A DNA stretch of 10,180 nucleotides from UHGV virus genome UHGV-1550197; one strand, given 5' to 3'. The position numbers and the translations under genes were made by a program. The stretch's first letter is position 1; every line of letters starts with the position of its first letter. Positions 1,386 through 3,655 of this stretch are shown here, in pieces. The notes beneath the pieces were generated by a model, which did no database searches, had not been told where the DNA came from, and worked only from the letters and a program-made list of their open reading frames with translations. Source of the stretch: a virus.

Positions 1386-1739
1386 TGCCTGCGCAAGCCC
1401 TCAAGGGGAACATAGGTTTTTGGATATTTAACGACCAGGATAACCATAAACCCGTCATCATACATTATAGCTCTTATCTGTTGCACACCGTTAGCTTAAA
1501 GGTTCCGGGTCCGATTACTCGAGGATAAGATATATACTGATGGATATATAGGCCTTGAGGCGTACTCCCGATTGGCCATCACCTCGGGGTAGCATGCACT
1601 TGCCGCTATAAAATAACATTCAAGAGGTACACCGTAAAACTGCCGGGGTCTTAAAACTATAATGATTCGCAAATCATTAATCAGACAGTTCGACGGCTCC
1701 TCGATTTAGCTCACACTAAGGCAGTGAATCTCCAATAAA
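1386..1739. other. ORF-free, GC-enriched (~44% against ~33-35% in flanking genes) element; candidate structured ncRNA, long mRNA leader or foreign insert
   Basis: No ORF of 60 aa or more in any frame (longest minus-strand ORFs I found by hand are about 30 codons). GC content by hand count is 37-50% per 60-nt line. Holds multiple copies of a palindromic CCTYRRGG-type 8-mer able to pair alternatively, plus local hairpins. No promoter motif found inside. Confidence 0.35.
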
Positions 1740-2837: not shown

Positions 2838-3074
2838 TTATTTACCTATTACAGTTTTAATATGAGTTGTTCCACGTTCTTTAAGGGTGGAAAGTAATTT
2901 TTGGCATTTTTCTAAATCAGATTTCCAACTATACGGTCTATCAATACTAGTCCAATCAGTTTTATAATACTGTTTCCATTTAGAGAAAAAATATTTCTTA
3001 TACTCTACAGCAAATGAGATGTTCTCGTTAGAATAAGAACTAATTGCTGTGAGCTTTACCAAACGAAATTTCAT
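2838..3074 (-). CDS. hypothetical protein (78 aa)
   Basis: ATG 3072-3074 overlaps the cd stop (TAATG, 1-nt overlap), indicating translational coupling. Product not recognised. Confidence 0.6.
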   Translation of the reverse strand: MKFRLVKLTAISSYSNENISFAVEYKKYFFSKWKQYYKTDWTSIDRPYSWKSDLEKCQKLLSTLKERGTTHIKTVIGK

Positions 3075-3655
3075 TATTCACCACAGAATTCGTTGATATT
3101 TTCCCAGTTTAACTTATTCAAGTTTTTCTTAGGAACATTAAACACTTCAATACCTGCATTTCGCAGAATATCATCCCAACCAGGTTTATTTTTGTCGTAT
3201 GTTTCACAATAAACTAGCTTTTTAATACCAGATTGAGCTATCGCTTTTGCGCAATCTGGACAAGGAGAAAGTGTTACATACATAGTAGCACCTTCAATAG
3301 AAGAACCATTTCGTGCAGCAAACAAAATTGCATTTAGTTCAGCATGAATTTCATTTTTAGATGACCATTCCGAGTGAGCACTACGATGTTCTTTCGCCAA
3401 AACAAAACGATCAGTTGAACCAAATGATACGCATTCAGGCTTATGACCTTGAATGATAGTGTGTTTAGGCTTATTCAACAACCAACCTTGCTCAGCAGCA
3501 TAATCACAACAGTTCACACCCCCTGCGGGGGAACCATTATACCCAGTAGAAATAATACGTCCATTCTTTTCAATTACTGCTCCTACCTTCCAGGAGCAAC
3601 ATTTTGATTCCTGTGATACTAAATATGCAATTTGAAGTACTGTACTCGCTTTCAT
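3074..3655 (-). CDS. cd: dCMP deaminase (deoxycytidylate deaminase), 193 aa
   Basis: Translation contains the cytidine/dCMP deaminase zinc motifs H-A-E (HAELNAI) and S-P-C-P-D-C and matches T4 Cd (193 aa) as I remember it. Confidence 0.95.
   Translation of the reverse strand: MKASTVLQIAYLVSQESKCCSWKVGAVIEKNGRIISTGYNGSPAGGVNCCDYAAEQGWLLNKPKHTIIQGHKPECVSFGSTDRFVLAKEHRSAHSEWSSKNEIHAELNAILFAARNGSSIEGATMYVTLSPCPDCAKAIAQSGIKKLVYCETYDKNKPGWDDILRNAGIEVFNVPKKNLNKLNWENINEFCGE

Follow-up and report, generated by a model that had tools for sequence, protein, structure and literature searches.

The stretch of DNA analysed here, a 10,180-nucleotide (nt) window of the virus genome UHGV-1550197, belongs to a Tequatrovirus with 98.6% identity by BLAST to Escherichia phage vB_EcoM_F1 across positions 1300-1800, and the genes around the locus of interest run on the minus strand. 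Between the lysis-inhibition gene rIII and gene 30.9, which encodes a small basic protein, lies a gap of 396 nt (1344-1739), the largest between minus-strand genes in the window, where the next largest measure 165, 148 and 110 nt. As a preliminary description of this DNA had noted, positions 1386-1739 contain no open reading frame (ORF) of 60 amino acids or more, the longest being 58 (with a TTG start) and 55 amino acids, and their GC content is raised, at 44.1% against 35.7% for the whole window. That description took these ~350 nt for a single element, a view that has to be given up: the interval is composite, and phages T4, RB27 and KMB22 are without the central ~150 nt while the flanks are near-identical. 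The actual unit is 1465-1611, and the GC excess peaks, at 47.6%, in 1466-1610. Read on the minus strand, this unit is predicted from comparison of homologous sequences to encode a compact RNA of 145-147 nt, whose parts are listed in Table 1 together with the surrounding genes and hairpins.

The fold of this RNA is a four-way junction with a kissing loop of 6 base pairs (bp), made up of the helices P1, P2-P3, P4 and P5-P6-P7. P1, P2, P4 and P5 abut without linker bases, and the junction is therefore a perfect four-way junction. In P1, four of the five counted pairs are changed on both sides, and one pair occurs as AU (13), GC (11) and UA (1); in P2, a C-G pair is replaced by U-A in phage fHe-Yen9-01. 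Compensatory changes affect seven of the ten pairs of P3 (for example CCCGA/UCGGG, CUCUA/UAGAG, CGGAU/AUCCG and GCAUCAAU/AUUGAUGC), four of the seven in P4, where 99.5% of alignment cells are paired, and four of the seven in P5, where all cells (100%) are. P6 is likewise 100% paired, with one pair found as UA (10), CG (9) and UG (7) and the next as CG (20), UA (4) and AU (2), and its tetraloop is GAAA in most relatives. P7 and its loop L7 (1485-1510) form the most conserved part of the RNA; compensatory changes in P7 turn G-C into A-U in fHe-Yen9-01 and A-U into U-A in locus L087. The sequence GCUAAYGGUGWGCAACAGAU is invariant among the homologues.

The tertiary contact is legible directly from the sequence. 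On inspection, the P3 loop (YRAUGR) proved able to pair with the entire P4 loop (YCAUYR), and the resulting kissing loop is 100% paired in 26 sequences, with three of its six pairs covarying. Three states occur, GAUGG:CCAUC, UAUGG:CCAUA and AAUGA:UCAUU, and the flanking pair alternates between C-G and U-A. RNAalifold had proposed an apical hairpin within L3 (GGY/RCC) instead; as it is the L3-L4 pairing that covaries, the kissing loop has replaced it in the model. An all-against-all scan of alignment columns for further tertiary pairs was too noisy with 26 sequences.

Table 1. Features of the conserved RNA, its flanking hairpins and the neighbouring genes (window positions).
Feature	Position	Strand	Details
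Whole conserved RNA	1465-1611	minus	P1 5' strand to P1 3' strand; covariance model R1, 182 bits
P1	1605-1611 (UUAUAGC) with 1465-1471 (GCUAUAA)	minus	closes the RNA
P2	1602-1604 (GGC) with 1551-1553 (GCC)	minus	100% paired
J2/3	1594-1601	minus	AAGUGCAU; unpaired, nearly invariant
J3/2	1554-1559	minus	CUCAAG; opposite J2/3, together a large internal loop
P3	stem 1584-1593 with 1560-1571	minus	whole hairpin arm 1560-1593
L3	1572-1583	minus	12-nt loop of P3
Kissing loop	L3 1576-1581 (UGAUGG) with L4 1538-1543 (CCAUCA)	minus	6 bp
P4	hairpin 1531-1550	minus	stem 1544-1550 with 1531-1537, 7 bp
L4	1538-1543	minus	6-nt loop, wholly taken up by the kissing loop
P5	1524-1530 (UCUUAUC) with 1472-1478 (GAUAAGA)	minus
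P6	hairpin 1511-1522	minus	1519-1522 with 1511-1514, 4 bp; GUAA tetraloop
P7	1506-1510 with 1485-1490	minus	ACCCG with CGG-U-GU; one bulged U
L7	1491-1505	minus	GAACC-UUUAA-GCUAA
J7/5	1479-1484	minus	GCAACA; unpaired; invariant in all 26 distinct sequences
Upstream hairpin	1632-1696	minus	CCGUCGAACUGUC...GGCAGUUUUACGG; predicted fold; downstream of rIII, outside the conserved RNA
Nested hairpin	1661-1678	minus	AATGATT-TGCG-AATCATT; within 1632-1696
Hairpin module B	1425-1463	minus	GUAUGAUG-stem-loop-CGUUAAAUA; downstream of the core; also in T4
Downstream hairpins	1360-1408	minus	CCCCUUGAGGG at 1398-1408; GCAGG...CCUGC, then a U-rich run, at 1360-1393
Intrinsic terminator	1142-1163	minus	9-bp stem, UUCG loop, T-run; just 3' of 30.9; strongest site in the pattern scan
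dCMP deaminase	3074-3655	minus
gp31	2137-2472	minus
rIII	1740-1988	minus	lysis-inhibition gene; phrog_1457
gp30.9	1167-1343	minus	basic protein, 58 aa; phrog_1427; annotated 30.9 in PS2 and LZ9
gp30.8	724-1056	minus	PF06019

The initial alignment of 22 sequences gave, with RNAalifold, seven helices in which 24 of 44 pairs carry double changes and 98.1% of cells are paired. Shuffled alignments yielded a mean of 9.2 ± 1.7 covarying pairs, with none of 500 reaching the observed number, and controls in which the pairing partners were slid by 1-3 columns yielded 3-8. With the kissing loop added and 26 distinct homologues included, the final model comprises eight helices with 47 conserved pairs, 99.1% of 1,219 cells being paired; 27 pairs carry double, compensatory changes, compared with 10.1 ± 1.8 in shuffles (0 of 500 reaching the observed value) and 3-7 in the slid controls. 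This bears out the structured non-coding RNA suggested in the preliminary description, with covariation support on a par with that of many validated riboswitches and ribozymes. All helices are kept in homologues with only 61-63% identity (fHe-Yen9-01 and EcS1), and the minimum-energy fold of the single sequence recovers P1, P4, P5, P6, P7 and most of P3. Because the 67 G-U cells pair only when the alignment is read on the gene strand, where 98.8% of cells are paired against 93.2% on the opposite strand, the RNA has the orientation of rIII and 30.9.

The pattern of conservation points to more than the maintenance of helices. Compared with Klebsiella phage YP11, this phage has 92.5% identity in the core but 76.5% in rIII and 69.6% in gp31, and so, being better conserved than the flanking genes, the core appears to be under selection. 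Invariant columns make up 27 of the 49 unpaired positions as opposed to 31 of the 94 paired ones, and the most conserved unpaired bases lie in the P2/P3 internal loop and the P5-P7 arm. This higher conservation of unpaired than of paired positions is the signature of loops and junctions that make specific contacts, and not of a hairpin that merely confers stability.

The same data bear on whether an RNA is the relevant product at all. A site acting at the DNA level (a recombination or endonuclease target, or an origin) or a small protein gene is very improbable, even though some GenBank records carry short hypothetical coding sequences (CDSs) across the element and the site, at which three alternative alleles occur, is a hot spot of recombination. 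The substitutions follow a compensatory pattern in eight helices and show no codon periodicity, G-U pairs are tolerated on one strand only, and a loop-loop pseudoknot and GNRA loops are features of RNA. The coding potential of a 34-amino-acid ORF at 1357-1461 and of frames of 26-34 amino acids in the core was considered and rejected, as the frames are not conserved: the former is shifted by 1-nt indels in T4, and the core frames lose their start in fHe-Yen9-01 and their stop in the Klebsiella phages and suffer a 1-nt deletion in EnC07. Minus-strand ORFs at 1357-1461 (34 amino acids) and 1496-1672 (58 amino acids) are annotated as hypothetical in some records, for example that of phage Pinarejo; these CDS calls are probably spurious. 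A decayed gene or intron, another of the origins first entertained, fares no better, since 1-nt indels disrupt the reading frames from one relative to another and neither Intron_gpI nor a group II intron family matches at E<=10. The cassette sits between complete genes, and both genes are intact where it is absent.

The preliminary description had drawn attention to four copies of a palindromic CCTYRRGG-type 8-mer and to their possible pairing in mutually exclusive ways. The motifs are exactly where it placed them (1399-1406, 1518-1524, 1553-1560 and 1582-1589), but only three fit CCTYRRGG, the CTCGAGG at 1518-1524 being a 7-mer, and in the covariation-backed fold none pairs with another, which leaves the proposed alternative conformations without a basis. 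The copy at 1582-1589 forms the 5' strand of P3, that at 1553-1560 falls in J3/2 and the edge of P2, and that at 1518-1524 belongs to the P6 hairpin; the copy at 1399-1406 is outside the conserved RNA, in a separate downstream hairpin.

The RNA behaves as a discrete cassette. BLAST searches against 50,697 phage records found the whole interval in only ~170-180 Tequatrovirus genomes; T4, T2, RB27 and many others match its two flanks only and are without the RNA. A central block of ~135-145 nt is 91-96% identical in T4-like phages of Klebsiella, Enterobacter, Citrobacter and Edwardsiella, whose flanks are unalignable. In total, the block is present in 407 phage records at 408 matching places, and every named host belongs to the Enterobacterales. 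The T4-like carriers, ~400 phages of enterobacteria, have one copy each, between rIII and 30.9. The covariance model scored 124-186 bits in 21 of 42 searched loci and found nothing in the others; even unfiltered, it gave no more than 6 bits in RNA-less relatives such as T4, RB27 and IME08. Of more distant members, a BLAST search started from the most divergent sequence brought in Serratia phage 4S alone, while pattern scans of metagenomes and IMG/VR returned T4-like contigs and one chance match, and a second, degenerate IMG/VR scan the same contigs again.

In Tequatrovirus the cassette is gained and lost at fixed boundaries. Three alleles occupy the space between CTTGAATGT and TATGATGACG: the ~150-nt block, a ~45-nt filler (T4, IME08), or nothing (RB27, KMB22). 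The filler, UACUAUCAYGCGUCAGAAAAGUGUUAUCUGUSUAAG..., stands at the exact cassette site in T4-type genomes (T4, IME08, L076). It was considered as a decayed relic of the RNA and rejected, as its local alignment was matched by 361 of 1,000 shuffles and the model gave it no more than 6 bits; it appears to be an unrelated alternative allele. Presence and absence of the cassette also distinguish close pairs of loci (L075 and L076, JS98-type; L074 and L072, PG7-type). In 35 loci fetched through the 30.9 protein and having a detectable upstream ORF, rIII directly precedes 30.9 in every case (35/35), with a gap of 284-464 nt where the RNA is present and 120-295 nt where it is not.

A carrier outside the T4-like phages shows the same behaviour. 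PKM.Lu.22.1, a 76-kb Grimontviridae phage related to Salmonella phage 7-11, carries the RNA at 150 bits and 81-84% identity, with compensatory differences in P1, P3, P4, P5 and P6. There, the neighbours of the RNA are a replication-initiator-like gene and a gene for an extracytoplasmic function (ECF) sigma factor. Its sister phage PKM.Hi.22.6 is 98.5% identical across the locus and is without exactly this ~150 nt. Presence and absence have thus been seen in three T4-like genera and in one 7-11-like pair, and the cassette appears, from its distribution, to be modular and horizontally exchanged.

This behaviour recalls a mobile element, and the earlier suggestion of a mobile-element remnant was right in so far as the unit is a discrete gain/loss cassette; it is, however, intact and under apparent selection, and no remnant. 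No target duplication was found at the junctions in comparison with empty sites, as a transposon or miniature inverted-repeat transposable element would leave, there is about one copy per genome, and the only inverted repeat of the cassette is the P1 helix. The idea of a captured host fragment finds no support: there was no homologue in 5,426 E. coli genomes or in 72,556 plasmids, and pattern scans, run twice over 185,579 genomes, each from a different bacterial or archaeal species, produced no more than two chance matches.

The preliminary description had also offered a regulatory leader for the basic protein. This finds no support, since 30.9 and the sequence upstream of it stay the same whether a phage has the RNA or not: three RNA-less loci encode a 30.9 protein with 100% identity, and the 100-130 nt from the cassette site to the 30.9 start, with all their hairpins, are the same in RNA-less phages. 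PKM.Lu.22.1 speaks against it as well, given the genes that flank the RNA there. On the same observations, a riboswitch, with an aptamer that responds to a small molecule and thereby sets expression of the gene downstream (30.9 or, in PKM.Lu.22.1, the sigma factor gene), is quite unlikely. Such an aptamer would suit a long GC-rich intergenic element upstream of a same-strand gene, a P1-closed junction and, as in riboswitch aptamers generally, covarying stems and the conservation of bases in junction and loops; a canonical intrinsic terminator even follows the RNA of PKM.Lu.22.1 by ~60 nt, just before the sigma gene. That terminator, however, together with the motif upstream of it, is also present in the RNA-less PKM.Hi.22.6 and in phage 7-11. 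No carrier-specific expression platform was found between the cassette and the next start codon, and because this downstream sequence is common to RNA-less phages, none is tied to P1. Furthermore, the gene downstream is 30.9 in the T4-like phages and that of the ECF sigma factor in the family of PKM.Lu.22.1, two unrelated genes, and no riboswitch family matches.

The RNA has the position of a processed small RNA from a 3' untranslated or intercistronic region, lying on the sense strand after a stop codon with no promoter of its own found: a pattern scan detected no sigma-70-like promoter in the gap 1344-1739, and P1 begins no more than ~25 nt after the upstream stop codon in CF1, EnC07, EcS1 (the rIII stop) and PKM.Lu.22.1. 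All terminator-like sites from the pattern scan fall near or past the 3' end of 30.9, and the terminator listed in Table 1 is the end of the rIII-30.9 unit. This arrangement would also suit an element that acts in cis on the transcript or the polymerase, either by processive antitermination, like the RNAs HK022 put and Bacillus EAR, which are cis-acting, gene-independent modules, or as a nuclease-resistant stabiliser of the rIII message. Such an element would allow expression past the hairpins and terminators downstream of it, and gene independence together with restriction to phages of Enterobacterales is what would be expected of a fit to the host polymerase or RNases. We nevertheless regard a cis-acting role as rather improbable, given that T4 expresses the same operon without the RNA, that a stability element would not need ~27 invariant unpaired bases, and that put RNAs, which are two simple hairpins of ~70 nt, do not resemble this one.

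Searches for a known identity were made at several levels. None of the 4,227 covariance models of Rfam 15 reached its gathering score in the window. At E<=10 over 1300-1800 nothing fell on the core, the sole match, to DUF2815 RNA (E=9.1), lying outside it in the downstream hairpins (1360-1408) and being attributable to chance; with permissive filters on eight homologous loci there was again no match to the core at E<=10. ARAGORN found no transfer RNA (tRNA) or transfer-messenger RNA genes in the window, and the RNA is not tRNA-like: the kissing arms are adjacent and do not correspond to D and T arms, and no CCA follows P1. The preliminary description could name no known RNA class, and these searches agree with it. 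In the literature, no paper was found that contains the invariant sequence or describes an RNA at rIII-30.9, with large unpublished and supplementary candidate lists left unchecked; on this evidence, and with the same reservation as to such lists, the RNA is a new family or class that matches no catalogued one.

One apparent resemblance to a known RNA was pursued and discarded. A 10-mer, GUGCAACAGA, is shared with the specificity domain of E. coli RNase P RNA (M1), and the same domain has CGAUGGCC in common with some members of the family and UGCGGUAAGAGC with fHe-Yen9-01. The shared words are in reversed order, not colinear and in different structural contexts, no Rfam RNase P family matches, and the alignment of the window sequence is not significant, 38 of 500 shuffles scoring as high. 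We have treated it as chance.

With no family to guide the assignment, a catalytic function deserves separate mention. A new self-cleaving or otherwise catalytic ribozyme could cut the rIII-30.9 transcript and uncouple the fates of its cistrons, and could be inserted into any transcript. Its attraction lies in the compact, P1-closed fold, in the two adjacent arms laid side by side by the kissing loop, in the many invariant unpaired bases and in the independence from gene context; phage genomes often contain small ribozymes, and a similar junction is found in the natural hairpin ribozyme. We nonetheless consider a ribozyme unlikely. Even a permissively filtered search at E<=10 matched no ribozyme family of Rfam 15, there is no position that could be put forward as the cleavage site, and the ~58 invariant positions are far above the need of known small self-cleaving classes.

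The reading that we favour, and to which we would give about an even chance, is that of an autonomous accessory RNA, a self-contained module that binds a specific partner and is not a leader of 30.9. It is the likeliest account because the fold and the invariant loops are kept in unrelated gene contexts while the RNA is dispensable in many lineages. In this mechanism, the RNA would be co-transcribed with rIII as part of the rIII-30.9 transcript and would probably be trimmed out of its AU-rich flanks. The tertiary fold would then present a specific binding surface or pocket, with the partner most likely being a protein or RNA, of host or phage origin, that is shared by infections of Enterobacterales. 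Binding would confer a dispensable, host-dependent advantage, for example in host takeover or counter-defence, and the RNA would not regulate gene 30.9.

Several points weigh against the proposal of an accessory, partner-binding RNA. That the RNA acts in trans and binds a partner is something we infer from the behaviour of the cassette and the pattern of conservation. A junction-closed fold with invariant unpaired bases and a variable peripheral hairpin fits an aptamer or a ribozyme equally well. In every case, structures of hairpin or terminator type follow the RNA on its own strand, an arrangement that is compatible with a cis-acting role too. Only one carrier outside the T4-like phages is known. 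The homologous sequences are phylogenetically related, so that the counts of alignment cells overstate the number of independent events. Finally, the folding energy is indistinguishable from that of shuffled sequence (z = -0.7 for both the interval and the core, and -0.3 to -0.7 over both strands); because these z-scores are uninformative, it is comparative covariation, and neither thermodynamics nor the 8-mers, that provides the evidence beyond chance.

A broader and more tentative reading, which we hold to be possible but short of probable, is that this is an undescribed class of functional RNA, aptamer-like or catalytic, that serves as an RNA-only accessory gene, is exchanged among unrelated virulent phages of Enterobacterales and acts on a host component. 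It might serve as a decoy for, or an inhibitor of, a factor involved in defence or in RNA metabolism, or it might modify the polymerase. If this were so, the accessory and counter-defence repertoires of phages would include structured RNAs besides proteins. Should the RNA prove to act in trans as an accessory RNA, or to be a ribozyme or aptamer, it would add a new RNA class and show that intergenic RNA modules pass between phage families like accessory protein genes. Although few viruses have been studied as intensively as the T4-type phages, the RNA had gone unnoticed, presumably owing to its absence from T4, T2 and RB27. Its function is directly testable, as natural near-isogenic pairs with and without the RNA exist in four lineages.

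The sequences around the core hold further structures of this kind. The minus-strand AATGATT-TGCG-AATCATT hairpin reported in the preliminary description is real, although it lies at 1661-1678 and not at 1654-1676, nested within the upstream hairpin. The latter is present in T4 and RB27, has lost its tip in KMB22, where the base is retained, and shows compensatory changes in IME08 and L076. Just upstream of it, at ~1698-1734, GGAG motifs in UUGGAG and CGAGGAG stretches are possible RegB sites. Module B is built of 3 bp, a bulged G, 3 bp and a loop UUnnnGGUUAU, with another copy in L003 at ~1690-1730; by eye, its stems covary (GAC:GUC, GUC:GAC and GUG:CAC; UGG:CCA, UAG:CUA and AAG:CUU), and it stands 3' of the core here and in T4 and 5' of the core in the Klebsiella and Serratia phages. 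The downstream hairpins, just before the 30.9 start, are identical with and without the core and shared with T4.

In addition, a motif of ~33 nt, GGTGATTTGCTACC(TT/-C)AAGTGCAGCTAGAAAAT, is 31/33 identical between Klebsiella T4-like phages and the unrelated 7-11-like phages. It is found at L091:884-917 (Salmonella phage 7-11), L089:~905-940, L003 ~1645-1680 and L010:563-584, with a degenerate copy at 1616-1635 of the window, and in the 7-11-like phages it lies between a gene end and a terminator even in RNA-less genomes. This suggests that the core is one of several intergenic RNA modules that pass between these phage families. Module C (GGTGATnnGCTACCnnAAGTGC) was considered as a MotA-type or sigma-70 promoter for the RNA and rejected: the spacing is wrong, the motif also occurs in the non-T4-like 7-11-like phages, which presumably have no MotA, and in PKM.Lu.22.1 it is downstream of the RNA.

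As to the gene that follows, gp30.9 is very basic, with 82-88% amino acid identity among Escherichia, Klebsiella and Serratia phages, and has no Pfam, NCBIfam or solved-structure match. Two GenBank records name it '1,4-alpha-glucan branching enzyme', in what looks like an annotation error. In fHe-Yen9-01, the 30.9 start and leader (L010:225-332, minus strand) give a weak, sub-threshold match to the Rfam S15 leader (20.5 bits, E=0.29), which is probably chance.

The RNA shares its general design with riboswitch aptamers and the four-way hairpin ribozyme, without matching any of their Rfam families. HK022 put and Bacillus EAR are likewise encoded by a phage or within an operon and act where they are transcribed, upstream of terminators, but there is no resemblance in sequence or structure. 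The natural hairpin ribozyme shares the perfect four-way junction, with two neighbouring arms docked side by side, but its loop A/loop B consensus is absent here and neither the hairpin nor the hairpin-meta family of Rfam matches. The S-adenosylmethionine (SAM)-I, or S-box, aptamer is another P1-closed four-way junction, with an arm bent at an internal loop so that its terminal loop makes a pseudoknot contact, as here, and the P5 of this RNA, CUUAUC...GAUAAG, reads like the P1 of the S-box. However, RF00162 gives no match at E<=10, the conserved bases of the core are different, no sulfur or methionine genes are associated with the RNA, and the contact here is loop-loop and not loop-junction. 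In the L2-L3 kissing loop of the lysine riboswitch and the loop-loop contact of purine riboswitches, ~6 bp of kissing between neighbouring arms similarly pre-organise the fold, although those junctions are five-way and three-way where this one is four-way, with no sequence match and no conserved downstream metabolic gene. A further parallel is offered by the orphan structured RNAs known from comparative genomics, including the phage-associated GOLLD and ROOL, which are likewise multi-helix, backed by covariation and found as long GC-rich gaps. Next to these, the present RNA, with no Rfam 15 match, is much smaller and resides in virulent T4-like phages, inside an operon, as a cassette that is either present or absent.

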